Below, one piece after another: positions 3,274-61,816 of a stretch of 64,000 nt of DNA. Position 1 is the first letter of the stretch. Each line of letters opens with the position of its first letter. The notes under the pieces are model-generated. The model searched no databases, had not been told where the DNA came from, and worked only from the letters and a program-made list of their open reading frames with translations. This DNA comes from Octopus vulgaris (taxonomy: Eukaryota): NCBI GenBank assembly GCA_951406725.2, contig OX597829.1, positions 4,340,001-4,404,000 on the forward strand, read 5' to 3'. Both the position numbers and the translations under genes were made by a program.

Positions 3274-3692
3274 CCTATTTTTTATTGCCCACAAGGGGCT
3301 AAACATAGAGAGGACAAACAAGGAGAGACAAACGGATTAAATCGATTACATCGATCCCGGTGCGTAACTAGTACTTATTTAATTGACCCCCCGAAAGGAT
3401 GAAAGGCAAAGTCGACCTCGGCGGAATTTGAACTCACAACGTAGCGGCAGACGAAATACCTATTTCTTTACTACCCACAGGGGCTAAACACAAGAGAGGA
3501 CAAACGAGGACAGACAAAGGAATTAAGTGGATTACATCGACGCCAGTGCGTAACTGGTACTTAAGTTATCTACCCCGAAAGGATGAAAGGCAAAGTCGAC
3601 CTCGGTGGAATTTGAACTCAGAACGTAACGGCAGACGAAATACGGCTACACATTTCGCCCGGCGTGCTAACGTTTCTGCCAGCTCACTGCCT
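3274..3692 (-). mobile_element. SINE family B (tRNA-like head, Meta/MESC-like central domain), head plus two tandem bodies
   Basis: The minus strand reads gagctggcagaaacgttagcacgccggg...ggtcgactttgcctttcatcctttcgggg...aagtaccag...agccccttgtgggcaataaa. The same family recurs at 3935, 53282, 53466 and 61586. Confidence 0.8.
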
Positions 3693-3934
3693 TATATACA
3701 TAGTAGATATCATACCTTCATACCTAAAGTTTACACGGGTAGAGTAGAATAGTTTGTGGGCTGTTATGTAGATAGATGTATGTATGAGTATGTGTGGGGG
3801 GAGGGGGTTGGTCTAAGATCTATTTAAAATGTGAAGGAGAAATGTTTTGATGGAAAGGCAAATACTAATAGCTAGCACCCTTGTTCACATTTGCCTGTCT
3901 ACTGAGATTTTTCCCTTCCATGGATCGTCTCTCT

Positions 3935-4102
3935 TTACGTTCTGAGTTCAAATTCCGCCTAGGTCGACTTTGCCTTTCATCGTTTCGGGGTCGATAAATT
4001 AAGTACCAGTTACGCACTGGGGTCGATATAATCGACTTAATCCCTTTGTTTGTCCTTGTTTGTCCCTTCTATGTTTACCCCTATGTGGGCAATAAAGAAA
4101 TA
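3935..4102 (+). mobile_element. SINE family B, 5'-truncated
   Basis: ttacgttctgagttcaaattccgcc...gggcaataaagaaata. Confidence 0.8.
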
Positions 4103-6327: not shown

Positions 6328-6880
6328 TGTTTCTTTATTAGCCACACAGGGCTGCACACAGATAGAACAAATTACAAGGTAGAGCTTTTCTTTTGAAGGG
6401 TTAGAAAAAAAAAAAAAAAAAAAAGGAAGGGGGAGTTTCGATCAAAAGGGATCGTAAAAGGAGAGAAAGAGGACAAAAAAGGGGGTTAAAAAAAAAGGGG
6501 GAGGAAAAAAAATTGATCAATAGGGATCGTTATCACAGAAATGTCAATATGAAGTGTAAAAGGGAGGACAGGTGAGGTTTACCCGTGGAAAGAAAAGCCT
6601 ACGGAAAAGACCACGGTAACCTCGGTCAATGAAGTCACATTTTATATTTCTTTTTTTTTTTTTTTTTTTTGCAAATAAGCAACTCTCTGTTTTCGATTTC
6701 TGGGTTCATAGGACTATGCTCAAGGTGGCTTCGTCATTCATACGTGCCATTCTTGCTACATTCACCCATCTTTTTAAAACATTCGCTAGACAAAACTTGC
6801 CTCTCTACTCTCACTTTCCTTTTCAAGTGGTACTTGAAGAAGTTGATGAGAGATTGACCAGAGAGGAAAGTGTTTGTCTC
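6328..6880 (-). mobile_element. 5'-truncated Tx1-like LINE (ORF2 C-terminus + 3'UTR) inside (GATA)n
   Basis: The minus strand encodes ...[36 protein letters not shown]..., and the 3' end is cagccctgtgtggctaataaagaaaca. GATA repeats flank both sides. Confidence 0.85.
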
Positions 6881-6958
<78 letters not shown>

Positions 6959-7308: not shown

Positions 7309-7828
7309 TGTTTCTTTATTAGCCACACAGGGCTACACACAGACGGGACAGATTACAAAGTAGAGCTTTTCTTTTTGGAGGAGAGAAAAAAAAAGTTGGG
7401 TTAGGTTTTCGATCAAAAGGGATCGTAAAAGGGAAAGAAAAAAAACGATCAATAGGGATCGTGTATCACAGAAATGTCATGATGTAAAGTGTAAAGGGGG
7501 AAGCAGATAAGGTTTATCCGTGGAAAGAAAACGCTACGGAAAAGAGCACGGTAACCTCGGTCAATAATTTTATGTTACCACATTTGTTTTCAAGTAGGTA
7601 ACCCTCTGTTTTAAATTTTTCCGGGTTCATAGGATCATGTTCAAAGTGGCTTCGTCATTCATACGTGCCATTCTTGTCACATTCACCCATCTTTTTTTGA
7701 AACATTCGCTAGACAAAAGTTGCCTCTCTACTCTCACTTTCCTTTTCAAGTGATACTTGAAGAAGTTGATGAGAGATTGACCAGAGAGGAAAATGTTTGT
7801 CTCCAATCCTTTCAGACGCGTCCAGGTT
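7309..7828 (-). mobile_element. 5'-truncated Tx1-like LINE inside (GATA)n
   Basis: ORF 7627-8061 contains [34 protein letters not shown]. The 3'UTR matches the 6328 copy, and GATA repeats flank both sides. Confidence 0.85.
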
Positions 7829-12625: not shown

Positions 12626-12788
12626 CGACAGGCTTCTTTCAGTTTCCGTCTACCAAATCCACTCACAAGGCATTGGTCGGCCCGGGGCTATAGCAGAAGA
12701 CACTTGCCCAAGATGCCACGCAGTGGGACTGAACCCGGAACCATGTGGTTGGTTAGCAAGCTACTTACTACACAGCCACTCCTGCGCC

Positions 12789-12789
<1 letters not shown>
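12372..12789 (-). mobile_element. SINE family A, full length (tRNA-derived head, CORE-like segment, internal TA/CA microsatellite, aaagagt tail)
   Basis: ggcgcaggagtggctgtgtagtaagtagcttgc...ggttccgggttcagtcccactgcgtggcatcttgggcaagtgtcttc...gactaaaggcggtgctccagcatggccgcag. A- and B-box-like motifs are present. About 40 copies or fragments occur in the window, e.g. 818, 2237, 5347, 8117, 9971, 12031, 14226, 14578, 17155, 23667, 26345, 26920, 38910, 43605, 46797, 52462, 52880, 54276, 56007. Confidence 0.9.
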
Positions 12790-15183: not shown

Positions 15184-15323
15184 GGGAGGCTTCTTTCAGT
15201 TTCCGTCTACCAAATCCACTCACAAGGCTTTGGTCGGCCCGTGGCTATAGAAGAAATCTCTAGCCCAAGGAGCCACGCAGTGGGACTGAACCTGGAACCA
15301 TGTGGTTCGTAAGCAAGCTACTT

Positions 15324-15600
15324 TATTTCACTATATTTGCCATAAAGGCAGTACATAGAGTAAAGTAGCTTTGCGTGTTGGACACGGACTTTAGTGAAAT
15401 GTAAGATAACGAAACGAGGATGATAAGGATGGGGGAAGACAAAAAGTGCCCGCCCTCTTCTGCTTTCCTTAAACATTGTCCCTCTTACAGTTTTTACAAT
15501 TTCTTCAATTTTTTGGACTTCGTAGTCCATTACTAATAATAACATAGTTCACAAAACTCAACCATCCTCCTCTCCGACCAGGCTGTATGCTACCCTAAGG
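15324..15600 (-). mobile_element. 3' end of a Tx1-like LINE joined to a SINE A head at AAGTAGCTTGCTTA
   Basis: The minus strand reads ...tgcctttatggcaaatatagtgaaata|aagtagcttgcttacgaaccacatgg. The terminal motif is shared with the 3' end at 33960. Confidence 0.6.
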
Positions 15601-21560: not shown

Positions 21561-21868
21561 TTGTATATATGTATGTATGTATGCATGTATGTATGTATGT
21601 ATGTATGTATGTATACAGGCACAGGAGTGTATCTATGTTCATAGAAGGGAACGGACAGGTACACACAAACATGCTAAGGTGGTAACAGAAAAACAGGCCT
21701 TCCTCTACCCGCCAAGGGAAGGAGGCGGCACAATCTCAATGATGGACTCAGCCGATGGCTGTACTCTTCAGGAACAAAGCTACTTACCACACAGCCAGTT
21801 TTGCGGCTGTGTATGTATGTATTCAAAGTTTTGCAGTAGCTATAAAACGAACAAACACTGCAAATCTC

Positions 21869-22369: not shown

Positions 22370-22762
22370 AGAGTGGCTGTGTGGTAAGTAGCTTGCTAAC
22401 CAACCACATGGTTCCAGGTTCAGTCCCACTGCGTGGCATCTTGGGCAAGTGTCTTCTACTATAGCCCCGGGCCGACCAATGCCTTGTGGGTGGATTTGGT
22501 AGACGGAAACTGAAAGAAGCCTGTCGTATATATGTATATATATATATAAGTGTGTGTGTATATGTTTGTGTGTCTGTGTTTGTCCCCCTAGCATTGCTGG
22601 TGTGTTTACGTCCCCGTCACTTAGCGGTTCGGCAAAAGAGACCGATAGAATAAGTACTGGGCTTAACAAAGAATAAGTCCCGGGGCCGATTTGCTCGACT
22701 AAAGGCGGTGCTCCAGCATGGCCGCAGTCAAATGACTGAAACAAGTAAAAGAGAGTAAAAGA

Positions 22763-27243: not shown

Positions 27244-27329
<86 letters not shown>

Positions 27330-27490
27330 GATGTGCGTTTTTCAGTTTCCATCTACCAAATCCACTCACAAGGCTTTGGTCGGCCCGAGGCTATAGTAGA
27401 AGACACTTGCTGAAGGTGCCACGCAGTGGGACTGAACCCGGAACCATGCGGTTGGTAAGCAAGCTACTTACCACACAGCCACTCCTACGC

Positions 27491-27568
<78 letters not shown>

Positions 27569-28114
27569 GGCAGACATTTTCAATTTCTGCGCCAACCCAA
27601 TCCGCGTACTACGAATTAGTGAGCCCGAGGCTATAGTAGCAGAAACTTGCCCAAGGTACCACGGAGTGAGATTGAGCCCGGAACCATGTGGCTGCGATGC
27701 AAACTTCTTATCACACAGCCGAAAATATCATTCACATATTCAGAAAGGCGCAGGAGTGGCTGTGTGGTAAGTAGCTTGCTTACGTTTGTCATAGACGGAC
27801 GTCTTTTTTGGTGGTGAGTCAAACGTATTGTTGCACGTGGATAATTTTTCTACTGTTGAATATTTTCGTGAACTTTGAAAATTTTTGTGCTTTTTCCCGG
27901 TGACGGGAGAAAGTAATTGTTGAAATATTGAAATTATTAATATTGAACTTATTAATATTGCTAGCGTGGACGAGATTTGAACTGTTGTCCTCGTTGTGAG
28001 GAAAAAATATTATAGGTTTCCCGTTTTTTTTGGATTCTATATTATATTATTGCGTGAAAAAAAAATTAGAACGTTGTAGGCTTTGTTGCTACGTCTCACC
28101 CCACCCCAGCAGGG

Positions 28115-29636
28115 GTGGGATTTGAACTGTTGTCCTCGTTAAGAGTAAAAAGAAAGCAACAAATTATAGGTTTCCCTTTTTCTGGAATTAAACTGTTTCA
28201 TTTATTTCGAACGAATATATCGGTCGGAATAATTCAAGAAAAGAACCAGCTGCATGAGCCAGCAGAAAAGTTTGCAGCAGTAGCCGCTGTGTTTTCAAAA
28301 GGTATTACAATTGAAACGGAGAAGCTCTCCGAGCTTTTTGAGAGAATGAAAGAGGAGGGTCGGGATATAAAGATCTTACCCTCCCCTAGTTTTGAAAATC
28401 TGAAGAGAAGGACACTCGTTTACAAAACGTACTGTCCTTCATCGAAGAAATTCAAGCACTTCGAAAAGTGCGAAGTAGAAAAATTCTTGGCCCCTATATG
28501 GAAAGATATAAAATACATAGCGAGGAGCCGGGCATATGGAACAATTGAGGTCAGATTCGAGACGGCCGAAAAAGCCCAAGAGCACTCAGTGAGTCCTTTA
28601 AAAACGAAGGAGATGGTACTGCTTTCAACGTACATGGGAAGGAGAACAGCACGCGTCCGAATAAACGACGTACCACCAGAAATTGAGGCAGGCGAGGGGG
28701 TGTCCGCCCTGTTGTATAACAGGACGGACAAAATCACCTTCCTCCAAATTACATGCACTGCCCCACAAAATTGGCAAGGGCAGAGCATCTCTACGATTAT
28801 TCAAGGAACGCAACAAGACATCGAGATGTTGCCAGAAAAATGCTCTTGGGGGAAGATATTGCCCTCAAGATTCAAGTAGAGGGCAAAAAGCCCACGTGTT
28901 TCGAATGTGGCAAAAAAGGCCTCATTCGTGTAGACTATGAAATATGGAAAAAAAAAAAATAAGTGTGCAGACATCAGGCCCTTCAACTACAGAAAAAGAC
29001 CCCAAACCCGCACACAAATTAGCTCCCACAGAAACAAATACTCCCACCCCACTATCTGTGGCACCCACTCCCAAACAAAGCACCCAAAACCCCCAGGCCA
29101 TGCACACACCGGTCCCGACAGAAACAAATACACCCACCCCCTCTGAAGCAGCAACTCCTCTGGAGGACACCATGGAGGGGACCGAAGGGGAGTTCAAGAC
29201 ACCTAGAAAAAAGTGAACACTTGCATCTTCTCCATCCATATCCCCCACAAAGAAAAAAGAAAAAAACAGCACACCACAGATAAAAAAAGATCCCGCTCCA
29301 CTGTCCCAGATAAAAAAATTAAAAAGAAAAAAGAACAAAGACTGAACAAAAACACTGGTAAAATTTGATACCAGGGAAAAATATATTACGGACATTTTAA
29401 AAAAGTACCACACCGCGGAGCTGTTGCAGCAGCCCGAAGGCACGGAAGAGAGATGTGAGTGGATATCGGAAAAACTGTATAAAGAAATGAAGGGTAGGCA
29501 TCCGAGGACCATCACGAACATCCCGGACGTTCCGCGGTATTTGAAGGAGCTTTTGAAGGAGCATGAGGAAAGGACTGCCTCACGTGTGGTGAGGTCAGCC
29601 CCAGCATCACCAACAAAAGAAAAAGTCAAAGGGTAA
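28115..29636 (+). pseudogene. LINE ORF1 (frameshifted), with a degenerate zinc knuckle and a Pro/Thr/Lys-rich C-terminal part
   Basis: 254-aa ORF continued in other frames. CFECGKKGLIRVDY is a decayed CX2CX4HX4C. It lies directly upstream of ORF2. Confidence 0.8.
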
Positions 29637-29665
29637 GTAGAACCCTTGCTTTGCTTTTGTTTTAA

Positions 29666-32600
29666 ATGACTGCACTTAACCTTGGGTGTTTGAATGTGCG
29701 TGGTCTGAACTCGAAGTGGAAGCAAGCTTGTTTCCTCGACGACCTCCGATCACACGATATGCATGTGATGGTTGCTACAGAGACCAAGCTGAACAGTCTT
29801 CAGGCCTTCTCGCCCCTCCTGAATGACTATGAGAAAATCATGTCTCCTAGCCGGACCGGAGGGCGAGGGGTGTAGTAGTACTGGTTCGAAAAGGCTTAGC
29901 TCTGCAGACAAGTATAGTCTATGTAGACCCAGAAGGTGGGCTGGTCGTCCTTGATGTTACATACAGCAGTAAGGCCTTCAGGTTGATCGGAATCTATGCA
30001 CCTTGTGCTAGAGGATTTCAAACTGATTTTTATCGGTGCCTAGAGAACTTTCTCGTGACGTCGAAGACATTAGTAGTGACGTCGAAGACATTAGTAGTTG
30101 AAGGGCCTGATGTCTGCACACTTCTGATGTCTGCAGACTTCCTGTCTGGCGGCCCGCGTCTCTCGGCACGGGAAGCTGAGTGCTGTAAAGGACCAATCAC
30201 GGCCGAGGAGTTAATCGAGGTACTGGGCGAATACCCCGGGGAGAAGTCGCCGGGTCTCGATAGTCTGCCTTATGAATTCTACAAAACTATGCCAGACTTG
30301 TTCGGGCACCTGCTGGCCATCGTCTATGCCAATTGGCAGCAGAATGGGAGAATTCCCAAGTCTGAAAATCGAGGGGTGGGGTGACGTTGATCAAGAAGGA
30401 CTCGAGCAAGGGGGACGAGATAGGGAACTTCAGGCCCATAACTCTGCTGAACACAGATTTTGGCAAGGTGCTAGCGAAAAGGTAGGCGCGGGTCGTGGAC
30501 AAACTTGTCGAGGAAGCGCAAACGTGCCTATCTCGGGCAGGACCATTCACGACAATCTCCACCTCATTAGAAAGGGTGGGGAAGATTTCTGGTTCGGGGG
30601 GGAGGGGTCACTGGTACATTTAGACCAGTCTAAGGCATTCGATAGGGTCGACCATCGGTACTTGGCAGTGGTCCTCGAGAAGGCTCGTCTGGGCCCGACC
30701 TTCCGCGGTTGGGTTGCTGCGTTGTACAGCGACATCGAGTAGTGTTAGGTGACTATAACGCTATTGTTGATGCACGCATCGATAGCGTTGACTCGATCTA
30801 TAGGAAAGTAAACTCACGTCTCGTGGATCTACTCAAGCGGTTTCAGCTGGCAGATCGTTACAGACTTGACCATCCAAACGTCCCAGAGTGGACCTGGATG
30901 AGTGGCGACGGAAGGTTCAAGTCCTATTTAGATAGGATAGTGATAAGAATTGGAGATAAGTCTAGTTTTAGCTGTCCACAGCTTGTCCAGGTAGTATACA
31001 CTGACCACAGAATGGTTAAGTGTAGACTGGACATAGATAGTACAGTTAAGAGAGGATCCGGCTACTGGAAGCTGAACAAGTCTATTTTGACTTGCGAGGC
31101 ATACCGTAGCCGGATTGAGGAATTAGTACAGAGGGCGTTAACCGGCGTGGTGGTTAATAACCGATGGTGGATCGCCCTGAAGAGTGCCATTCGTTTTGAT
31201 TCTATTAGGTTTAGCCGACAGCTAAGACTAGATAAGGCCAGAATAGAAGGGCAACTAGTTAAGGACCTAGAGGAGGCGCTGAGGTTGAGCTCTGCATCTC
31301 ACATTTCGTCAGCGAGTACGGCCTTGGACCGTCACCTCAAAGCCAAACATGAGGAGTGCAGAGTTCGGGCTAAAGTGCGCGCATTGGGCCGTGAGGGGAT
31401 TAATGTTGCCGGATGGGCCCGTACGGTAGAAACCCAGCATGACAATAATGCCACAATTAGGTCTCCCGTGGATGACAATGGGAGTTCGGTCGATGGACGG
31501 GACGAGATGTGTGAGGCAATTCACAAGCACTTTGTCGAGTTGTTTGGGAGTGGCGGGGCGCTGGATCATGGCGAGGCCCTTAGGGACTTCCTGTCTGGCG
31601 GCCCGCGTCTCTCGGCACGAGAAGCTGAGTGCTGTAAAGGACCAATCACGGCCGAGGAGTTAATCGAGGTACAGGGCGAATACCCCGGGGAGAAGTTGTC
31701 GGGTCTCGATAGTCTGCCTTATGAATTCTACAAAACTATGCCAGACTTGTTCGAGCACCTGCTGGCCAGCGTCTACGCCAATTGGCAGCAGAATGGGAGA
31801 ATTCCCAAGTCTGAAAATCGAGGGGTGGGGTGACGTTGATCAAGAAGGACTCGAGCAAGGGGGTCGAGATAGGGAACTTCAGGCCCATAACTCTGCTGAA
31901 CACAGATTTTGGCCAAGATGCTAGCGAAAAGGTAGGCGCGGGTCGTGGACAAACTTGTCGAGGAAGCGCAAACGTGCCTATCTCGGGCAGGACCATTCAC
32001 GACAATCTCCACCTCATTAGAAAGGGTGGGGAAGATTTCTGGTTCGGGGGGGGGGGAGGGGTCACTGGTACATTTAGACCAATCTAAGGCATTCGATAGG
32101 GTCGACCATCGGTACTTGGCGGTGGTCCTCGAGAAGGCTCGTGTGGGCCCGACCTTCCGCGGTTGGGTTGCTGCGTTGTACAGCGACATCGAGTCCGTCG
32201 TAACAGTAAATGGTTTCCTTTCAAAGCCAATCAGGATCGAACGTTCAGTGCGTCAGGGGTGTCCCCTGTCCTCGCTTTTGTATGTACTGGCTCTCGAGCC
32301 ATTATTGCAGATGTTGGAGACGCCAGGGGGCGCACCGCATGATCTATGGTGTGGAAGAGGAGCTACAGCGTACGCGGATGACATCTCCATCGTGGCGGAT
32401 GAGGGCCAGCTTCCAGTGGTGGAAGAGGCTATCAAAGTTACGAGGCGGTGGCAGGAGCAAAGGTTAACAAGGACAAGTCAATTGCTTTGCAGCTCGAAAC
32501 CTGGAGGGGCAAGCCGATTGTGTCCAATAACGTCGTGGGGCGTTGGACGGAAGGTCCTGTTAAGGTGCTCGGAGTCTGGTTCGGGCCAGACTTCCAGACT

Positions 32601-33714
32601 AAAAAAAATTAGAATGAAGTGGCCAGCAAGGTGACTGCCCTAATCCAGACCTGGTCTGGGCGGGCGTTATCCTTGCTAGGAAAGACAGAGGTGGTGCAGA
32701 TGTTTATAGCATCGGTTATCACCTACCGTCTGACCGTGGTGCCTTGCCCCGATTTGTGACTGAACAAGTTGGAGAGAATCCTTTTCCACTTTTTGTGGAA
32801 GGGAGGAAAGCCACTCGTGAAGCATTCTGTCTGCTGTCAGAAACCGCTAAAGGGTGGGCTAGGGATGCCTTGGCTGAGGATGCGAAAATTCGCGTTAGGG
32901 TTGAGGCACCTCTTGGCTTTATTGGATGGAGAGCAGGTGTGGTCACCGCACGTTCGGTTCTACCTTCCGCAATTAACGTCCTTAACGGACATTGGTAACT
33001 GGATCAAGCAGAGACCTAGGCTGGGGGACGGGCAATTTGAGTGCCGCCAGGCACTTCAGCTACTCTCTCGGTCGGGCAATGCCGGCGACAAGAGTTCCAC
33101 CGCGGATTTCTATAGTGGGTTAGTGGAGGTTAAGTCCGAAGACGCCTTGGGGAAACCCTGGGCTACGATGAAAATCAGTTAATCAACCTGTTCCGGAGAA
33201 CTTTTGGGCCGGGATATCTGGACAATTACCAGAAATCTCTGGCTTGGCATTGCTTCCGTGCGGCGTTACCTATTCGTGATAAACTGTCAAGGCACGGAAT
33301 TGCCGTCTCGTCGACATGTCCGAGGTGCGGGCAGGACAGAGAAACCGTCTTGCACGCATTTGTGGAGTGTCTGGAATTAACGGGACTGATAGTTTTCGCA
33401 GAGCAACTGTTATCGATGGGAAGAGTACAGCTATCAGCTGAATCTATCATCGAGATTGTGCCGCCTCCTTCCCTTAACAGGGAAAGGAAGGCTTGCTTTT
33501 TCTGCGTAGTAGCCATACTGAAAGAAACAGTATGGAAGACGCGTGTGAGAGGCATATGACGGGTACTTTTGTATCCGGCCAGGGGTTGGTTAACTTTTTT
33601 AGTTACCACCTCAGTAATAAGATCAGACTGGAGTAAAGATACCTGTCACGAGACAGATTCATGAGAAGATAGAAGCCTGTGGCGAGGAAGCTGGGAGTGT
33701 TTGGAACCAGGTAA
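29666..33714 (+). pseudogene. LINE ORF2: APE endonuclease, reverse transcriptase, C-terminal CCHC (frameshifted, internally duplicated)
   Basis: Endonuclease motifs: GCLNVRGLN, ATETKL, LGDYNA, SYLDRI, TDH. RT motifs: GYWKLN, NFRPITLLN, LDQSKAFDRVDH, RQGCPLS and YADD at 32371. Zinc finger: CPRCGQDRETVLHAFVEC. Confidence 0.93.
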
Positions 33715-34646
33715 GTGGAAGCCAAAACAGGAAAGAAAAAGCAAGGGGTTTACCCTGGTGGTCGGATGCCTATCCTTCAGAGAAGCCATTGCAAATTTCA
33801 TTTCTAACGAGCAAGTCAAAAGTTATAAACATATCTATTAAATTATTGTAAATGTTAAATTGTAAATATTTAATCGCTACAGCTGCTTCACCCTTTTATG
33901 TTTGTCTGTTCTTGTTCGTCCCCTCTTTGTAATGCCTTCATGGCAAATATTTATGAAATAAAGTAGCTTGCTTAACAACCATATGGTTCCAGGTTCAGTC
34001 CCACTGCGTGGCACTTTGGGCAAGTGTCTTCTAATATAGCCTCGGGCCGACCAAAGCCCTGTGAATGGATTTGGCATACGGAAACAGAAAGAAGTCCGTC
34101 GTATATGTGTATATATATGTATATATATACACAAGAAAAAAGCAACAAGAATGGATTAGTTGTTCAGTACAATTCTTTCATACGAAGAACAGATTTATTA
34201 AAAGCTGCAAATATTGCAGCAAATACAAGTGTCCCGTATTCATCAGCCAAAACACATATGAGTTTTCCAAACATCCTAGGGAGTGAGGCTACACTCATGA
34301 AGTATCGAAGAGAGTTCTATGAAAAGCAAAGTTAGATTGTAAGCAGATTTAAAATGTTTTCTAATGATGCACAGTTTTATTATATATATATAATTTTAAA
34401 TTAAAAATAATATATATATATATATAGATATAGATATATGTGTGTGTGTTTGTCCCCAAAAAACATTGCTTGTCAACCGATGATGGTGTGTTTGCGTCCC
34501 CGTAACTTAGCGGTTCGGCAAAAGAGACCGATAGAATCAGCACCGGGCTTCTAAAAAATAAGTCCCGGGGACGATTTGCTTTAGTAAAGGCGGTGCTCCA
34601 GCAAGGCCACTGTCAAATGACCGAAACAAGTAAAAGAGTAAAAGAG

Positions 34647-35914: not shown

Positions 35915-37187
<1,273 letters not shown>

Positions 37188-40708: not shown

Positions 40709-41136
40709 CATACAAGGCGCAGGAGCGGCTGTGTGGTAAGTAGCTTGCTAACCAACCACATGGTTCCTGGTTCAGTCCCACTGCGTGGCATCTTGGGCAA
40801 GTGTCTTCTGCTATAGCCCCGGGCCGACCAATGCCTTGTGAGTGGATTTGGTAGACGGAAACTGAAAGAAGCCTGTCGTATATATGTATATATATAAGTG
40901 TGTGTGTATATGTTTGCGCGTCTGTGTTTGACCCCCTAGCATTGCTTGACAACAGATGCTGGTGTGTTTACGTCCCCGTCACATAGCGGTTCGGCAAAAG
41001 AGACCGATAGAATAAATACTGGGCTTACAAAGAATAAGTCCCGGGGTCGATTTGCTCGACTAAAGGCGGTGCTCCAGCATGGCCGCAGTCAAATGACTGA
41101 AACAAGTAAAAGAGTAAAGAGTATATATATGTATAA

Positions 41137-43600: not shown

Positions 43601-43982
43601 TTAGGTCTCTTTTTACTCATTTACTTGTTTCAGTCATTTGACTGCGGCCATGCTGCAGCACCACCTTTACTCGAGCAAGTCGACCCCAGGACTTATTCTT
43701 TGTAAGCCTAGTACTTATTCTATCGGTCTCTTATACCCAAACCGCTAAGTTACGGGGACGTAAACACACCAGCATCTGTTGTCAAGCGATGTTAGGGGGC
43801 ATAAACACGGGCACACAAACATATACACACACACGCATACATACATATATATATATACGACGGGCTTCTTTCAGTTTCCATCTACCAAATCCACTCAAGG
43901 CTTCTATATTAGAAGACACTTGCCCAAGGTGCCACGCAGTGGGACTGAACCCGGAACCATGTGGCTGTTAAGCAAGCTACTT

Positions 43983-44128
43983 AATTCATATGTATTTGCC
44001 ATGAAGGCATTACAAAGAGGGGACGAACAAGAACAGACAAATATAAAAGGGGGAAGCAGCTGTAGCGATTAAATATTTTCAATTTAACATTTACAATAAT
44101 TTAATAGATATGTTTATAACTTTTGACC
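43983..44128 (-). mobile_element. 3'UTR fragment of the same Tx1 family as 27783-33960, joined to SINE A at the same site
   Basis: The reverse complement closely matches 33814-33960 and continues into aagtagcttgcttaacagccacatgg. Confidence 0.88.
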
Positions 44129-46722: not shown

Positions 46723-47339
46723 CGGAAGGAGGGAGGGAAATAGGCTGACGAGCATTTTGTGAGGGTCACACACGCACACACATATTTACATACTCTCTCT
46801 CTTTTACTCTTTTACTTGTTTCAGTCATTTGACTGCGGCCATGCTGGAGCACCGCCTTTTTTTAATCGAGCAAATCAACTCCGGGACTTATTCTTTGTAA
46901 GCCCAGTCTATTTTGCCGAACCGCTAGGTGACGGGGACGTAAACACACCAGCATCGGTTGTCAAGCAATGCTAAGGGGACAAACACACACACACACATAT
47001 ATAGGTATATATATATACATACATATATACGACAGTCTTCTTTCAGTTTCCGTCTACCAAATCCACTTACAAGGCATTGGTCGGCCCAGGGCTATAGCAG
47101 AAGACACTTGCCCAAGGTGCCACGCAGTGGGACTGAACCCGGAACCATGTGGTTGGTTAGCAAGTTACTTACCACACAGTCACTCCTGAGCCCTTCAATT
47201 TGAAAACTCCACCAGAATGGACGAAAGCGCTTATATATATGATATATGATGTATAAAAACATGTAATATACAAATGAATATCTGTAAATATATAAAACCA
47301 TCCGAATTTCTGAGTACCTCATTTCTTCTAATATAAAAT

Positions 47340-49326: not shown

Positions 49327-51193
49327 ATTTTTTATTATGGCCACGCAGGGCTAAACACAGAAAAGAGACGAAATACAACGTAGAGTTTTTCTTTTCGAGG
49401 TGGGATCGGTGGGACACACAAAGAAAAAGTTCAATCAATAGGGATCGTTGGGCTGTGTGATGTACAAAAAAAAAAGAAATATATAAAGTCCCCCCCCCCC
49501 AAAAAAAAAGAGGGGGAATCGATATTGTTCACAGTTTAGGTGTAGCCTTGGAAAGAAAAACCTACAAAAATGACCAAGGTCATCTCGGGCAGTTCAAAAT
49601 GTACGTAAGAGTAAGTACCTTTCCTCTCGTTTTCTCGTTTTATTATAGATTTATGCTTAAAATGGTGTCGTCTTTCATACTGACCATTCTTGCTACATTT
49701 ACCCATTTTTTATTGAAACTTTCATTCGACAACACTTTCCTTTCTATTCTCATCCTCCTTTTCAAGTGGTACTTAAAAAAAGTTGACGAGAGATTGACCA
49801 GAGAGGAAAGTGTTTGTTTGTAAACCTTTCAAACGCGTCTACCACACGCACACGCATTCTTTCGCCATAGCTATCAGTGTTACCAAAACTTCCCGTTTAA
49901 AGGAAGATAAGCGGGCCCGTCCTACACGCGACAACAGCTGTTCGACGAAGGTCCACAGCTCTGAAATATCGGACACTGCACGAGTGCGTGCAGAACGGTT
50001 TCATCGTTCTGACCGCATCTCGGGCAGGTCGGTCCGGTGGTGGGTTTCGAATCGTGCCTGTAGCTCTTCTCTCGAACAGGTAGTGCGTCTCGATAGCATT
50101 GCCAAGCCAGGGATCTCTGGAAGTTATCCATAGGTCCCGGCCCGAACGTCGTCCTGAAAAGGCGGGTTAGGAATTTCTCGTCGACGCCCAAGAGTTTCGT
50201 CGGACCTCCCCTCCACTTGTCCTCTATAGAACGCTTTGGTCGTTTGGAAGTTGCACAAGTTTTATCCCGGGCGGCAGAGCTGCTGTAGAGCTTGGCGACA
50301 CTCTCGGTGCCAATCGCCCAGTTTCGGTCTCTTTTTGATCCATATTTGCAGTTCGGTCAGTGAGACGAGCTGCGGGAAGGCGCGCCTCACAAACGGCGCC
50401 CACACCTGTTCATCGTCGTCGATGAAGTTTCAGAGATGTCGCAGTCTCAGCGCATGCCTGCGCATAATCAACCACGGCATGCCCAGCCCTCCATTTAACG
50501 GATGTTAACAGCAAATGGATCGCCTCACCATCGGAACGCCACCCTTCCACAGAAAGCGGAAGAGTATGCGTTCCAGTTTCGTGATGGTAGCATCGGAACA
50601 AGGCACGACGGTCAGGCGGTAATCGATGATTGATGTAATATACGCATCAGCCACCTCCGCCCGACCTTTTATAGATAGCTTTCTCTCGGCCCATGTTTGG
50701 CTGAGAGCGACCACTCTACTCATGATCTCGTCCCAGTTCTTATCCATTTGGAGATCCGGACTGAACCAGACCCCAAGCAGTTTAACCGGTCCATCCGTCC
50801 AGCGTCCCACTACTGAGTCGCTGTTGTACGGTATGGGCTTGCTTCTCCAGGTGCCGAGTAGCAAACCCACTGACTTTTCCGGGTTAATTTTTGCTCCCGT
50901 CACCGTTTCGTATTCTTTTAGTGTCTCGCCTAGCATCTCGATGTGCTTTCCGCTGGACACTATGACGATGACGTCCGCATATGCCGACACGCTCGTCCCG
51001 CAACCCAGTTCCCGTGGGATGCTCCTCAGTGTCGCCAGCTTCCGCAGTAGCGGCTCGAGAGTCAATACATACAGAAGCGCCGACAGGGGACATCCCTGAG
51101 GGACCGAACGCGTGTTGTCAAACGGTTTTGATAGGTGACCGTTCACCCGAATTGCCGATCGGATGCCACTATACAAGGCAGCGATCCAACCGC
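49327..51193 (-). mobile_element. 5'-truncated Tx1-like LINE (RT C-terminal half, zinc finger, 3'UTR) ending in (GATA)n
   Basis: Encodes GWIAALYS...QGCPLSALLYVLTLEPLL...SAYADV...GAKINPEKS...CPRCGQNDETVLHAL. Confidence 0.9.
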
Positions 51194-51922
51194 GGACTGA
51201 ACCCGGAACCTTATGGTTGGTAAGCGAGCTATTTACCACACAGCCACTCATTCATACCAATCACATGGGTCCGGGTTCAGTCCCACTGCGTGGCACCTTG
51301 GGCAAGTGTCTTCTACTATAGCCTCGGGCCGACAAAACCCTTGTGAGTGGATTTGGTAGACGGAAACTGAAAGAAACCCGTTGTATATATATGCGTCTGT
51401 GTTTACGTCCCCGTAACGTAGCGGTTCGGCAAAAGGGAAAACGATAGAATAAGTACTAGACTTAGAACGATTAAGTCCTGGCGTCGATTTCTTCGACTAA
51501 AGGTGGTGATCCAGCAAGGCCACAGTCAAACGACTGACACAAATAAAAGAATGTTTTGTGTGTGTTTGTGTCTACGAAGACAGACATATTTGCGCATGCG
51601 TGCATGTGCCTTTAGTGAAGCATTTCCGGAAGTTCTAATCACTGCGTCCCAACACCGATATCACGTGGATAGCAATGGGTTCCTTTGGGTCCCAATCGCG
51701 TGGAACCAGTAATTATTTAGCTGTTGACTCATGAGGCTACCTCATCCACCCTGTTACCCGGTCCTGCGGTTTCGTTCACGTGTTTAGTTCCCCCGGCGGA
51801 TTGGGGAGGGGGATTTAAACAAGACGTGACTTCAGCGGTTGTCAGGTATTATAATAAGCGAATTGCTGAGGCGTGGCCGTTGCTTCGCTAAGATAGGTTT
51901 TTCTGGTGTCGTAGGAGAAGAA

Positions 51923-53281: not shown

Positions 53282-54030
53282 GTTTCTTATTTTGCCCACA
53301 AGGGGCTAAACACAGGGGACAAACAAGGACAGACAAACGGATTAAGTCGATTACATCGACCCCAGTGTGTAACTGGGTCTTAATTTATCGACCCCGAAAG
53401 AATGAAAGGCAAGATCGGCCTCGGCGGATTTGAACTCAGAACGTTCGTAATTGATAACAATAACAAAGCGGCGAGCTGGCAGAATCGTTAACACGCCTGG
53501 CGAAATGCTTAGTGGTATTTCACCTGTCGCAACGCTGTGATTTCAAATTCCTCCAAGGTCGACTTTGCTTTTCATCCTTTCGGGGTCGATAAATAAAGTA
53601 CCAGTTAAAAACTGGGGTCGATATAATCGACTTAATCCGTTTGTCTATCCTTTTTTGTCCTCTCTGTGTTTAGAACCTTGTGGATAGTAAAGAAATAGTA
53701 ATTTTGTCTGGCGTTACGTTCTGAGTTCAAATTCCGCCCTGGTCGACTTTGCCTTTCATCCTTTCGGGGTCAATTAAATAAGTACCAGTTACGCACTGGG
53801 GTCGATATAATGGACTTAATCCGTTTGTCCGTCCGTGTTTGTCCTCTCTGTGTTTAGCCGCTTGCTGGTAGTAAAGAAATAGGTATTTCGTCTGCCGCTA
53901 CGTTCAGGGTTCAAATTCCGCGCAGGTCGACTTTGACTTTCATCCTTTCGGGGTCGATAAATTAAATACCAGTTAAACAATGCAGTTGATGTAATCGACG
54001 TTATCGCCTCCTCAAGCTGATATTGTGGCA
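53282..54030. mobile_element. SINE B cluster: minus copy 53282-53445, then a plus-strand head with three tandem bodies at 53466-54030
   Basis: ttcaaattcc...gtcgactttgc.tttcatcctttcggggtc is repeated at ~53540, 53725 and 53910. Confidence 0.85.
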
Positions 54031-56435: not shown

Positions 56436-59400
56436 GTTGTTGACATCCTTTTTATCTTGGGAGACAATGGAGTTGCACATAAAATAATCTAGTCTGGCTT
56501 TTACATTTCATGTCCTAATACATTTCCTGCTGTGGCTGTGTAGTCCTATCCTGGACAAACACTCCCTCTGGCAGGTGCCACAAATGTAGCGAAGACTTTT
56601 CCTGGCTGGTTGTAATGCCATAGTTTCTTGTTGACGTCTTTTCTTGTCTTTCCATTTCTCCTCTCTCTCTCTCTCTCTCTTCCTCTCTCACTCACTCCTT
56701 TGTGTTCCCTCTTTTACGGTACGTCACCAACCTCCACGGTTGCTGGCAACTGCTTCCCAGTTGCTAATATTGATGTTGCAGACCTTCATGTCCCTTTTGC
56801 AAACATCCTCGTATCGTAAGAACGGTCTTCCCACAGACCTAGTGCTCCTAGCAAGCTCTCTGTAGAGTATGTCCTTGGGGATTCTGCCATCTTCCATATG
56901 GCTAAGAGTCCAAGCCATCTCATACGTCTTTGTGTGAGGAGTGCAAACATGCTTGGTATTCCTGCTTACTTGAGGACATCTTTGTTGGGGACATGATTCT
57001 GCCATTTAATGCCAAGGATTTTCCGGAGGCAGCGCAGGTGAAAGATAATTAGGCGACGCTCTTGGCATGTGTATGGCGTCCAAGTCTCACTTCCATACAG
57101 TAGAGTGCTAAGTACACATGCCTGGTAAATCTTCATTTTTGTGGTCTTGGTCAGCTTATTGTTGTCCCATGCCCGTTTGGAGAGTTGGGCCATCACAGCA
57201 GCTGCCTTGCCAATGCGTATATTGAGCTCAGCATCAAGGGATAGGTTGTAGGTGATGGTAGAGCCAAGATAGGTAAACTTCTCCACCTCCTGTAATCTGT
57301 GGTCTCCAATATGTATGTTTGGGATGTCCGATGTAGCCTGACCCATGATGTTGGTCTTCTTGAGGCTGATAACTAAGCCAAAGTCATACATGCTTGCTCA
57401 AAACAGTTGATGAGCCTTTGTAGGGCTTCTTCTGTGTGTGATACCAGAGCAGCATCATCAGCAAATAGCATCTCCTTGATCAGGACGCTTCTGATTTTGG
57501 TCTTGACATGCAGGCGCGAGAGATTGAACAGTTTCCCGTCACTTCTACTGTGCAGAAACACTCCATCATCTGATGTCTGAAAGGTATGTGAGAGTAAGAG
57601 CGAGAAGAAGATGCCAAATAATGAAGGAGCAAGGACACAAACAACCTTGCTTTACCCCGTTTTTTATTTGGAAGGCGGCTGATGTCGAACCATTGTGTTC
57701 TATGGTGCCTTGCATATCATCATGGAAAGATTTGATGATCCTCAGCAGCTTTGGTGGACATCCGATTTTTGGAGCAGGATGAAGAGGCCTTTTCTACTTA
57801 CCAAGTCAAAGGCCTTTGTCAGATCAATGAAGGCCATATATAATGGCATTTTCTGCTCTCTGGACTTCTCTTGAAGTTGGCGTATGGAGAATATCATGTC
57901 AATAGTTGATCTGCTTCTTCTAAAGCCACACTGCGATTCTGGATAAATTTGAGAAGCAAGCTGTTGTAGCCTGGACTGGGAACGCGAGTGAAGGTCTTTC
58001 CAACAGTGCTTAGAAGAGATATTCCACGGTAATTGTTACAATCACCACGGTCACCTTTCTTTTTGTAAAGCGTAATGATGTTAGCATCCCGCATATCCTG
58101 AGGGACTGTACCCTCTTCCCAGCACTGACACAGAAGCTCATGAAGGTGCCGAGGCAGGATGGTGTTTTTGCCGGCTATGATGATCTCTGAGGGGACGCCG
58201 TCTTTTCCCGGAGCCTTGCTACTTGCTAAAGAGTCAATAGCCTTGGTGAGCTCTGCTATAGATGGCGGACTGTCAAGTTCGCACATGACTGGCAAGATCT
58301 TGATATCCTCGATTGCAGCCTCAGCTACCGTGGTCTCTTGTGAGTAGAGATCCTGATAGTACTCCACCCAACTATGCATTTGCTTGCTTTGGTCTTTGAT
58401 GGGATCTCCAGTATTTGATTTCAGAGGAGCTGACTTGGTTGCGGATGGACCGAGGGCCTTCTTCAAACCGGCATACATCCCACGGGTGTCGCCACTGTCA
58501 GCAGCTGACTGGATACTCTGACAGATTTCCTGCCAATACCTATTTGCACCGCGTCTGGCTGTCAGTTGAGTTTTATTTCTTGCCTTTCTGAGTTCTTCGA
58601 GTGATTTTGTAGAAGAATCACTCTTGTATTGCATCAGAGCTGCACGCTTTGCTTCGATAACTGGCTCCAGTGCTGAGATCCCAGCACTGCACCAATCTGG
58701 GGTTTGCCTTTCTCTCATGCCGAAAGTATCTATTGATGTGGTATACAAAGCTTCACTGATATAATTCCACCTACTTTCAGCAGAGGAGGTTGGGTAGCTA
58801 CTGAGGGCAACCTTAATAGAAACAGCAAAGCATTTTCGCAGTGTAGGGTCCGAGGTTCTGGCAGTGTTAATGCGTGGTCGGCCCATTTTCTTGGAGTGAT
58901 GGACTTTTTTAGGCAGAATCCTCACCCTGCTTCTAATTAGTTAGTGATCTGTGTCACAATCCGCGCTGTGGTAACTACGGGTCTTGTTGAACAGAATTCA
59001 GAAAGGATCTTCGTGTAATGATGGGATCCAGCTGATGCCAGTGGTGAGATCTTGGATGTCTCCAAGATGCCTTGTGGGATGGCTTGTTGGCAAAGAATGT
59101 GTTGGTGATGCACAGGTAATGGTATGTGCAAAATTCAAGTAGTCTCTAACCATTGTCGTTCATGTTGCCAATACCAAAGTGTCCAACACAAATGGGCCAC
59201 GAATCATGGTCAGATCCCACGTGAGCGTTAAAATCTCCTAGAAGGTAGATGTTTTCATTGGTTGGTATATTTTTAATGACACAGTTGAGATCTTTGTAGA
59301 ACTGGTCCTTGGTCTCCTCTGAGCTGTAGAGAGTGGGAGCATAGATGCTCAGTAGATGTACTGAACCAGAAGTCGAGAAGCGCAGTGAGAGGATACGCTC

Positions 59401-60335
59401 AGTGCCTCCTGATGGTGGTTCTATTGAGGAAAGTAATGAGTTTCTCACTGCAAAGCCAACACCATGCTGACGAGGTTCTTCTGGATCGCTTCCCTGCCAA
59501 AAGAAGGTGAAATCCTGTTCTTTGAGTTTGCCGTTTGAGGGAAGTTTTGTCTCCTGCAGCCCAGCAATGTCTAAGTTAAGCCTCTTTAGTTCACGGTCAA
59601 TGATGGCCGTCTTTCTTGTGTCTTCAATACTATATAAATCATCAGATATGCCAGGGCACATGGTCCTAACATTCCAGCTTGCTAATCGCAGGACTGGTGG
59701 TTTCTTGTCTTTTAGTTGTTTGCCTGGTGCAGAGGTTGCAGGCCGTTTTTCAAATCAAACTCTTAGCTCCAAGCACCAAATGAAGCAGGTGGCCTGTGGT
59801 GGGTCAGCACCTTATTAACTGGGGGCTGCCCAGCTTGAGGTGGGCAGTAGCTAACCAATAGGACATGGAGGTCCATCCCACCGTCAGAGGTAACCCGTAG
59901 CGCCCATATTTTATGCCAATCTGAATGGACTTATCACTCGTGACTGTTACCTCCCGTGTTGTTTCTGCCGCTTTTTACAGCAGCACTGAAGTGTCCTCTC
60001 CAGTTTTGCGCAGGCTTGGGCTAGAAATAAGAAAATCCTGGGTAACCCAATCGTCATGATTCCTCTCTCGACCTTGCTGACGTAGCCCAAAGGAGTGCAG
60101 AGTATTACGTTTGGCACCAGCTTGGTTGCAGGAGCTGCCGGAAGAGTGTCGAGTCGAGCACTAAACCGCCTTCGGGGCTCCACACCGGATTTCTTTGAAG
60201 GTTGTCTCCTTTCCGTAACCCTGGATAGGGGCCCATGCCGGGTAGTGTCAGCCGGAGCCAGCTGAGCTCGTGACTCGTGTCAGGCAGAGTCGTCACTCCC
60301 TGAAGTAGTGAAGAAGTTCGCTACCCACTACCCAA
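56436..60335 (-). mobile_element. Near full-length, decayed RTE-clade LINE (single APE-RT ORF, frameshifted) inserted in (TA)n
   Basis: Endonuclease motifs: LASWNVRTM, RKTAIIDRELKRLNLDIAGLQETK, GVGFAV, LLGDFNAHVG. RT motifs: NYRGISLLS, LFADDAAL, FTYLGS, STLLYGSETW. The C-terminus is CGTCQRECLSRIGLHSHSRKC and the 3' end is ccattgtctccc...ggatgtcaacaac. Confidence 0.93.
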
Positions 60336-61093: not shown

Positions 61094-61274
61094 TGTTTCT
61101 TTATTAGTCACACAGGGCTGCACACAGAAGGGACAGATTACAAAGTAGAGCTTTTCGTTTTGGGGAGAAAAAAAAAGTGGGGTAGGTTTTCGATCAAAAG
61201 GGATCGTAAAAGGGAAAAAAACCATCAATAGGGATCGTGTATCAGAAAAATGTCATGATGTAAAGTGTAAAGGG
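61094..61274 (-). mobile_element. Tx1-like 3'UTR fragment abutting (GATA)n
   Basis: Matches 7309-7500. Confidence 0.85.
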
Positions 61275-61585
61275 TATTCATATACAGTCATCTATACGCA
61301 CCTGCATAGATTTATCTCGTAAACAAAGATATCTAATGGGACCCACGTCTGTAGACGCACAATCACATTGTCGGAATTCGATGCTCTACCGCTTCTCTCT
61401 GTGTCTCACTCTCTGTCTGTTTGTCTGTCTGTCTCTCGGTCTCCCTGTCTTCTCTCTTTCGCTCTCTGTCTCTCCCAGGCTTGCCCACGGTACCACGCAG
61501 TGGGACTGAACGTGGAGTCATGTTGTTGGGAAGCAGGCTTCTTACAACACAGACACTTCTGCGTCTACATATATATGTATAGAAA

Positions 61586-61816
61586 AGGCGGTGAGCTGGC
61601 AGAAACGTTAGCGCGCCGGGTGAATTGATTAGCGGTATTTCGTCTGTCGTTACGTTCTGAGTTCAAATTCAGCCGAGGTCGACTTTGCCTTTCATCCTTT
61701 CGGGGTCGATAAATAAAGTACCAGTTTCGCACTGGGGTTGATGTAACCGACTTAATCCCTTTGTCTGTCCTTGTTTGTCCTCTCTATGCTTAGCCCCCTG
61801 TGGGTAGTAAAGAAAT
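61586..61816 (+). mobile_element. SINE family B, full-length monomer
   Basis: aggcggtgagctggcagaaacgttagc...agccccctgtgggtagtaaagaaata. Confidence 0.88.

Follow-up and report, generated by a model that had tools for sequence, protein, structure and literature searches.

The subject of this report is a long interspersed nuclear element (LINE) of Octopus vulgaris, here termed family A, which interrupts a copy of a short interspersed nuclear element (SINE A), and the recurrence of the same LINE-SINE junction elsewhere in the window, the 64,000 nucleotides (nt) of contig OX597829.1 that were analysed as a whole and to which all positions below refer. The full-length LINE and the SINE that it splits are made up as follows.

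27746..27783 (+), SINE A head, nt 1-38, the upstream half of the split SINE, with an A-box-like motif at 27757-27767
27769..27782 (+), left target-site duplication (TSD), 14 bp, or 15 with 27783 (= SINE nt 38)
27784..33960 (+), family A LINE, full-length, decayed, Tx1-type, each boundary +/- 1-2 nt
28254..29636 (+), open reading frame 1 (ORF1), about 1.4 kb, with frameshifts and stops and a putative, degenerate CCHC-like knuckle near 28895-28935
29666..33714 (+), ORF2, broken: apurinic/apyrimidinic (APE)-type endonuclease, tether, RVT_1 reverse transcriptase (RT) and C-terminal zinc knuckle
30056..30740 (+), part of the endonuclease region, rearranged, with a short tandem duplication, an inverted piece of ORF1 and a 605-bp internal copy
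33715..33960 (+), 3' untranslated region (UTR), 246 bp, with a terminal hairpin at 33933-33945 and an AATAAA at 33957-33962 that overlaps the duplication
33961..33974 (+), right TSD
33961..34110 (+), SINE A body from nt 24, with a B-box-like motif at 33992-34001 and variants at nt 38 and nt 97
34442..34645 (+), SINE A tail behind the internal microsatellite, by its position probably part of the same split copy

The LINE is 6.2 kb long and contains a 5' UTR, ORF1, ORF2 and 3' UTR in that order. ORF1 gave no match in Pfam, while ORF2 is colinear with L1 ORF2p and has detectable RVT_1 and zf-RVT domains, the latter at about 33233-33373. Within the rearranged segment a 30-bp inverted copy of ORF1 (28961-28990) is accompanied by a 605-bp copy of 31585-32194 carrying 12 substitutions, and the pieces are joined at microhomologies, a templated rearrangement. 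The 605-bp copy was considered as a clock for the insertion and discarded because the same reading-frame defects are common to both copies.

The initial annotation held that the LINE splits SINE A with a clean 14-bp TSD, and this is borne out. SINE nt 1-38 lie to the left of the LINE and nt 24 onward to its right, the break falls between the A and B boxes, and the direct repeat AAGTAGCTTGCTTA, at 27769-27782 and 33961-33974, is identical at 14 of 14 positions with no exact extension on either side. The AATAAA of the LINE runs into the duplication, which leaves an uncertainty of one or two A's in the 3' boundary; similarly, the left junction continues through SINE nt 38 (C), and thus the duplication could be 15 bp long with one mismatch. 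The internal microsatellite of this SINE copy also holds an unrelated single-copy insert of ~270 bp (34130-34400), with no inverted ends beyond TA repeats.

SINE A, which has 43 matches in the window, displays an A-box-like motif at nt 12-22 and a B-box-like motif at nt 55-64, followed by an internal microsatellite and then a tail of ~200 bp. The two boxes suggest that the SINE is tRNA-derived. No tRNA model was present among the 21 Rfam matches, at E values up to 10, to 27300-27800, and ARAGORN found no tRNA gene in the window; the missing Rfam match indicates that the head has drifted from its tRNA, as is common for SINE heads. The near-palindromic nature of nt 20-40, and the (TA)n-type microsatellite that precedes 14 of the 20 SINE A copies with an intact start, are further features of the repeat. 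Four copies (12637-12789, 22371-22515, 40715-40867 and 47041-47192) form a young subfamily with four to five common variants and 1-7 differences in 130 nt, none of which holds a family A insertion, and the copies at 815-988 and 2232-2403, with 1 difference in 130 nt and similar flanks, are probably a local duplication. A search of viral and GTDB contigs with the SINE pattern returned no matches. SINEs in general account for ~11.6% of the O. vulgaris genome (PMC13282606). Octopus SINE families have been described under the names OK, OR1 and OR2.

Three further loci in the window bring family-A-type sequence and SINE A together.

43984..44127 (-), family A 3' end, 5'-truncated, its 5' flank being (TA)n without a SINE head
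43605..43983 (-), SINE A from nt 23/24 on, comprising body and tail, following the 44127 copy
15324..15361 (-), family-A-type terminus, 38 nt, with other upstream sequence that is without a match to ~15830
15194..15323 (-), body of SINE A, starting at nt 24 and following the 15324 terminus, without the nt 38 and nt 97 variants
21777..21797 (-), SINE A head nt 12-32, 7 nt from a 5'-truncated family-A-type piece, with SINE nt 1-13 inverted at 21617-21629 (+)
21640..21769 (-), the family-A-type fragment itself: an ORF2 piece at 21686-21769 and a 3'-UTR-like piece at 21640-21681

Alignment of the truncated copy at 43984-44127 with 33815-33960 shows 5 differences in 144 sites, and the last 38 nt of the 15324 end are 84% identical to family A, a score that none of 300 shuffles reached. 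Both ends had been described as joining SINE A at the same nucleotide and in the same relative orientation as the full-length LINE, and indeed nt 23/24 of the SINE is the point of contact for each of the window's three family-A-type 3' ends. Nine SINE pieces start internally (nt 20 or later), and the three that do so at nt 23-24 are these same junctions. When the 21640 fragment is included, SINE A adjoins all four family-A-type pieces, on one side or both, in what is a tiny sample from a single window; the published criterion for a target-specific family is that more than 20% of flanks lie in one repeat type (Kojima 2015, PMC4494074).

It could be argued that, with 43 SINE A matches in 64 kb, such contacts reflect coincidence in a SINE-rich region. 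It should be emphasized, however, that the window offers about 36 such sites in 128,000 strand-positions, which gives a p of ~2.8e-4 for one random insertion and of ~8e-8 for two more independent events at the same base and on the same strand. Under a loose null in which the motif A(A/G)GTA (262 occurrences in the window) suffices, p is 0.019 for two events and 0.0026 for three. The window also contains a second Tx1-type family, B, at five places.

7311..7826 (-), family B copy
6330..6882 (-), family B copy
35916..37046 (+), family B copy
49328..51196 (-), family B copy
61096..61276 (-), family B copy

Family B is ~65% identical to family A in DNA, and two of its copies stand in tandem. All five of its 3' ends lie in (TATC)n, arrays of which constitute 1.7% of the window, and none is at SINE A; three of the five 5' ends are likewise in (TATC)n, and one adjoins SINE A at nt 64. 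Since family B is absent from the SINE at its 3' ends, SINE abundance alone is not the source of the family A pattern, and coincidence, rejected by the in-window count, can be set down as wildly improbable. Family B is itself likely to be microsatellite-specific in the manner of Kibi and Koshi, the alternative being a (TATC)n tail encoded by the element.

The junctions might also reflect a broader or older target, either tRNA genes of one family or a short motif, SINE A then being struck as an abundant look-alike. The site does lie between the A and B boxes, where tRNA-like sequence persists, and non-LTR (long terminal repeat) elements that target tRNA genes are known (PMC4640811). The behaviour of a further repeat, SINE C, also bears on this proposal.

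3275..3693 (-), SINE C copy
3937..4100 (+), SINE C copy
53288..53430 (-), SINE C copy
53470..54005 (+), SINE C copy
61586..61812 (+), SINE C copy

Over 48 nt, the 3' tail of SINE C has 36 positions in common with the family A 3' end, a match that none of 500 shuffles equalled, and SINE C lands at several A(A/G)G(T/C)A-like starts, which include a fixed base of its own head: its three tandem junctions all resume at the same base of that head, as if the SINE had inserted into itself at a fixed site. Against a broader target, however, stand the five-letter motif null given above, the lack of any tRNA gene in the window and a SINE head without an Rfam tRNA match, and we regard this explanation as distinctly unlikely. 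The TSDs of SINE C measure 24 and 17 bp, and its central part, we presume, resembles a CORE domain. The 3' ends of family A, family B and SINE C all display a short GCC...GGC-type hairpin, with differing loops, followed by an AATAAA-like motif, which together are probably the RNA signal for the RT. As 80 L1-Tx1 families are recorded for O. vulgaris (PMC13282606 supplement), the LINE partner of SINE C may be other than family A. A candidate partner for SINE A is an RTE-like LINE with endonuclease and RT at 56900-59754 (-).

The sequences upstream of the LINE pieces provide a separate line of evidence. The ORF2 piece at 21686-21769 is 86% identical to 33420-33504 and scores 119 against family A and 57 against family B. 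As a SINE head lies upstream of this truncated copy, at 21777, 3' read-through cannot be its source. The presence of SINE nt 1-13 in inverted orientation at 21617-21629 indicates that a later inversion scrambled the 21617-21797 locus, and it was at this inversion that the 3' end of the 21640..21769 fragment was lost. One break of the inversion lies within the SINE head (nt 12/13) and the other in the LINE 3' UTR. The SINE head is therefore found on the 5' side of two of the four family-A-type pieces (27783 and 21777). A contig from a related organism (run X2, depth 67.8) contains a LINE end, then the 14-bp site up to the equivalent of 33974, then 12 other letters, and then LINE sequence from 33871, which is as a second truncated copy inserted in a reformed site would look. 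This joint is one contig, among the best 15 of 85 joints; the contig runs X2 and X6 comprised 4132 and 3461 records, respectively, and the loose ends considered were the best 12 of 897. Contig depth is high in the last two bins, but SINE A and the SINE C tail can account for this, and it was set aside as support; the nine matches to the 3'-end pattern in JGI metagenomes, none of them followed by SINE A, were taken as chance.

These data are best accommodated if family A belongs to the Tx1 clade and has an APE-type endonuclease with a preference for a single site within the tRNA-derived SINE A head, a reading to which we assign a probability of roughly 0.63. The idea of a lineage specific for the SINE head was already present in the initial annotation; it gains from the head at 21777, the X2 joint, the contrasting behaviour of family B and the divergent SINE tails described below, and it is tempered by the small number of events, all in one window. 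Several observations weigh against a preference of this kind. The sample comprises four pieces in one window and one contig, and two raw-read runs (X22 and X23), in which 0 and 1 of 12.9 million reads each matched, gave no information on 3' flanks. Beyond its 38-nt end the 15324 element matched neither family A, nor the rest of the window, nor 256 proteins, which leaves its identity as a LINE unsupported. The junction at 21777 ends at SINE nt 32-36, not at 37/38, albeit in a scrambled locus. None of the seven visible 3' junctions of SINE C lies at the site that family A uses in SINE A. The 44127 copy was searched over ~770 bp of its upstream sequence, and the 15324 terminus over 1.7 kb, for a SINE head or a duplication, and neither was present; thus two of the three copies with a 3' junction are followed by SINE sequence without a 5' head, the sign that had been named in advance as pointing to 3' transduction from one master copy; the third, at 27783, does have the head. 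Finally, the SINE bodies behind 33960 and 43983 have two variants in common that occur in none of the 27 other bodies (simulated p 0.008).

With respect to the 15324 element, the proposal that it represents an independent LINE family survives only in part: what it has in common with family A is confined to the terminus, and nothing further upstream identifies it as a LINE. Its longest frame gave four weak matches, all of them to repeat proteins. Having only 38 terminal bases in common with family A, it may be a non-autonomous passenger.

The missing heads invite the explanation that one or a few LINE-in-SINE insertions were copied, as units of LINE end plus SINE, into (TA)n-type repeats by the partner machinery of the SINE, the junctions being inherited. 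The 44127 copy has the appearance of such a unit, its SINE tail being complete and its 5' flank (TA)n without a head; 14 of the 20 intact-start SINE A copies likewise stand behind such microsatellites, and the SINEs behind 33960 and 43983 do have variants in common. With 27 differences in 167 sites (rank 76 of 105 pairs) their tails, however, are as unlike as those of random pairs; the LINE parts have 5 differences in 144 (Fisher p 0.0003). This tail divergence makes copying of the whole composite unlikely, and the two SINEs look like two different old copies. In addition, the 15324 unit differs in both its upstream sequence and its SINE variants, and neither the head upstream of the truncated 21777 copy nor the X2 tandem joint is made by SINE-tail copying. 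Co-mobilization of this kind is thus a rather unlikely source of the junctions. It should also be noted that truncated copies of Utopia, a target-specific element (U2), can lack the 5' target as well (PMC4640811).

The variants at nt 38 and nt 97 bear on a further explanation. The initial annotation had pointed out a C>A change common to the 33961 and 43983 junctions; it is present at nt 38 in 2 of 29 near-complete SINE bodies, exactly those behind 33960 and 43983, and we find that the same two bodies have a second private C>A variant, at nt 97. In nt 24-97 the two differ at 4 of 74 sites, and further on at 33 of 207. Family A RNA could read into the downstream SINE (to ~nt 100), anneal at the nick to any SINE copy and overwrite the proximal part of the target with donor variants, in which case the site would be fixed in part by inherited RNA-DNA pairing and not by the endonuclease alone. 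The two private variants and the proximal-distal contrast conform to this proposal, the contrast being the largest of 55 pairs (p 0.026) at a breakpoint picked post hoc. So does the state of nt 38, which is C at both readable left junctions (27783 and the X2 contig) and A in the right copy. There is also precedent, as R1Bm RNA needs downstream target sequence and both R1Bm and R7Ag show 3' transduction (PMC7265360). The basis of the proposal is, however, two variants in two copies, and a rare SINE subfamily would look alike. Proximal sites are less diverged across all SINE pairs (0.089 vs 0.126), the SINE copy at 15324 has neither variant, and there is no duplicated SINE stretch of the kind that ordinary transduction leaves. 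The sharing of nt 38 and nt 97 could reflect a rare subfamily, partial co-conversion from read-through RNA, or chance, and insertion guided by homology appears to us unlikely, if worth bearing in mind. Taken together with this RNA-guided variant, target specificity of family A in one form or the other is a conclusion that we hold with reasonable confidence.

From the junction positions, the duplication, the orientation and the domain content, all of which are observed, we infer the following nicking and priming steps for a site-preferring family A. The endonuclease would open the bottom strand opposite SINE nt 23/24, where a TT/A step resembles that in the L1 consensus (PMC6007223), and the A-rich end of the LINE RNA would pair with the exposed T's and prime reverse transcription. 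The duplication would arise from a nick in the top strand after nt 37 or 38, at a distance of 14-15 nt; the C at nt 38 of both readable left junctions hints at a 15-nt stagger. As SINE nt 20-40 are near-palindromic, both nicks could be made by one enzyme that reads similar sequence each time. Truncated copies would sometimes lose the upstream SINE head at the 5' join, and the reformed site downstream would remain open to a second insertion. Because the A and B boxes are separated by the insertion, the split SINE promoter is probably silent, which implies that the full-length LINE, with its head and duplication, is a primary insertion or a DNA-level copy of one. SINE A would, in such a scheme, be a plentiful and dispensable landing site.

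Family A likely belongs to the Tx1 clade, on a comparison that covers fish proteins, human L1 ORF2p and R2. Seven fish proteins, of which four bear the name TX1 from the automatic annotation of their source, gave scores of 70-84 bits with a 145-aa RT piece, in contrast with 32-34 bits for human L1 ORF2p and 36-54 for R2. The endonuclease-tether piece did not separate Tx1 from L1 (-1 to 53 vs 54-55 bits, respectively), and a TSD of 14 bp fits the length known for L1/Tx1. In an RT tree of 34 rows (2 dropped as too short; no outgroup; Tx1L, Keno, Dewa, Kibi and Koshi not included) families A and B fall nearest to Argonauta and unnamed relatives, in an order that the tree does not settle, and far from the fish Tx1 group, which sits on a branch of 1.21; Argonauta supplies the nearest named RT relative of family A. 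The endonuclease region is 81% identical to XP_014775867.1 of O. bimaculoides (Exo_endo_phos), over 27% of the query, and the endonuclease pieces from the window had no Pfam match at 0.001. ESM Atlas yielded generic RT or endonuclease clusters only, and a protein search of viral contigs no relatives. In APE endonucleases the hairpin loop determines specificity. This loop has Arg-Phe-Lys in family A and in the O. bimaculoides protein, a combination found in none of the other 20 loops extracted (3 further proteins gave no pattern match).

The Tx1 clade is well known for its choice of targets, which comprise the piggyBac-type Tx1D, U2, U5, 5S, satellites, microsatellites, Mariner-N4, Harbinger and LTR retrotransposons (Kojima 2015, PMC4494074). 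Its families often target repeats and make tandem insertions around the TSD, and the crocodilian Tx1-8_Crp and Tx1-4_AMi prefer LTR retrotransposons (PMC4494074). Family A resembles Tx1-Mar, Tx1-8_Crp, Tx1-4_AMi and Tx1-9_AMi in occupying fixed places in abundant transposons, which for these families are Mariner-N4, LTR retrotransposons and Harbinger (PMC4494074). The tandem insertions around the TSD in the crocodilian families, for which hitchhiking was tested with truncated copies, recall the X2 joint (PMC4494074). Family A differs from them in having the promoter of a tRNA-type SINE as its target, a cephalopod host and a preference deduced from one window. Tx1L of Xenopus laevis is likewise an APE LINE found at a specific site of a non-autonomous mobile element, Tx1D (PMC4494074); its target, however, is a DNA transposon and the specificity of its endonuclease was demonstrated biochemically, while that proposed for family A, for a SINE, is read from sequence. 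Keno (U2 snRNA), Kibi and Koshi (microsatellites) belong to the same clade and follow the same strategy (PMC4494074, PMC4640811).

The targets of Keno, Kibi, Koshi, Dewa and Mutsu are host RNA genes or simple repeats, in contrast with the SINE struck by family A; family B, with its (TATC)n, behaves like Kibi and Koshi. Dewa and Mutsu insert into a tRNA-array spacer and 5S rRNA, respectively. NeSL-1_TV, LIN15_SM and LIN25_SM also have a tRNA-type insertion target, but employ a restriction-like endonuclease, strike real tRNA genes and belong to another clade (PMC4640811). R1Bm and R7Ag are, as family A appears to be, sequence-specific APE LINEs, in which read-through target RNA helps priming; they differ in belonging to the R1 clade and having rDNA targets, and overwriting of the downstream flank is absent from the passages on them (PMC7265360, PMC6007223).

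The initial annotation described the arrangement as a retrotransposon parasitising a retroposon. The target is indeed a mobile element, but the description is less novel than was claimed: as Tx1 targeting of LTR retrotransposons has been published (PMC4494074), retroelement-on-retroelement targeting was already known. A literature search found no published Tx1 family with a SINE target, although Repbase, Dfam or subscription journals may hold one, and the excerpts of three mollusc repeat papers (PMC13282606, PMC8967140 and PMC4758252) contain no mention of a SINE-targeting Tx1. A SINE is thus probably a new target class for the target-specific Tx1 LINEs, while the principle of a LINE hiding in another repeat is not new.

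A bolder proposal is that octopus Tx1 lineages divide targets among themselves, family A using the SINE A promoter, family B (TATC)n and the partner of SINE C the SINE C head, and that family A, in addition, finds its site by means of read-through SINE RNA, overwriting ~75 nt with donor variants. We consider this combination improbable as a whole; if true, it would describe a LINE that uses a SINE as both landing pad and guide, disabling each SINE promoter that it strikes and converting SINE sequence while it spreads. For repeat annotation, LINE/SINE junctions of the kind described here merge consensus sequences. As SINE A belongs to an octopus-specific expansion, the target inside it is young, and an endonuclease that settled on SINE A would show how fast APE-type LINEs gain new specificity, an open question in the field. 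The presence in one genome of sister families with different targets and different endonuclease hairpin loops would open that specificity to experiment.

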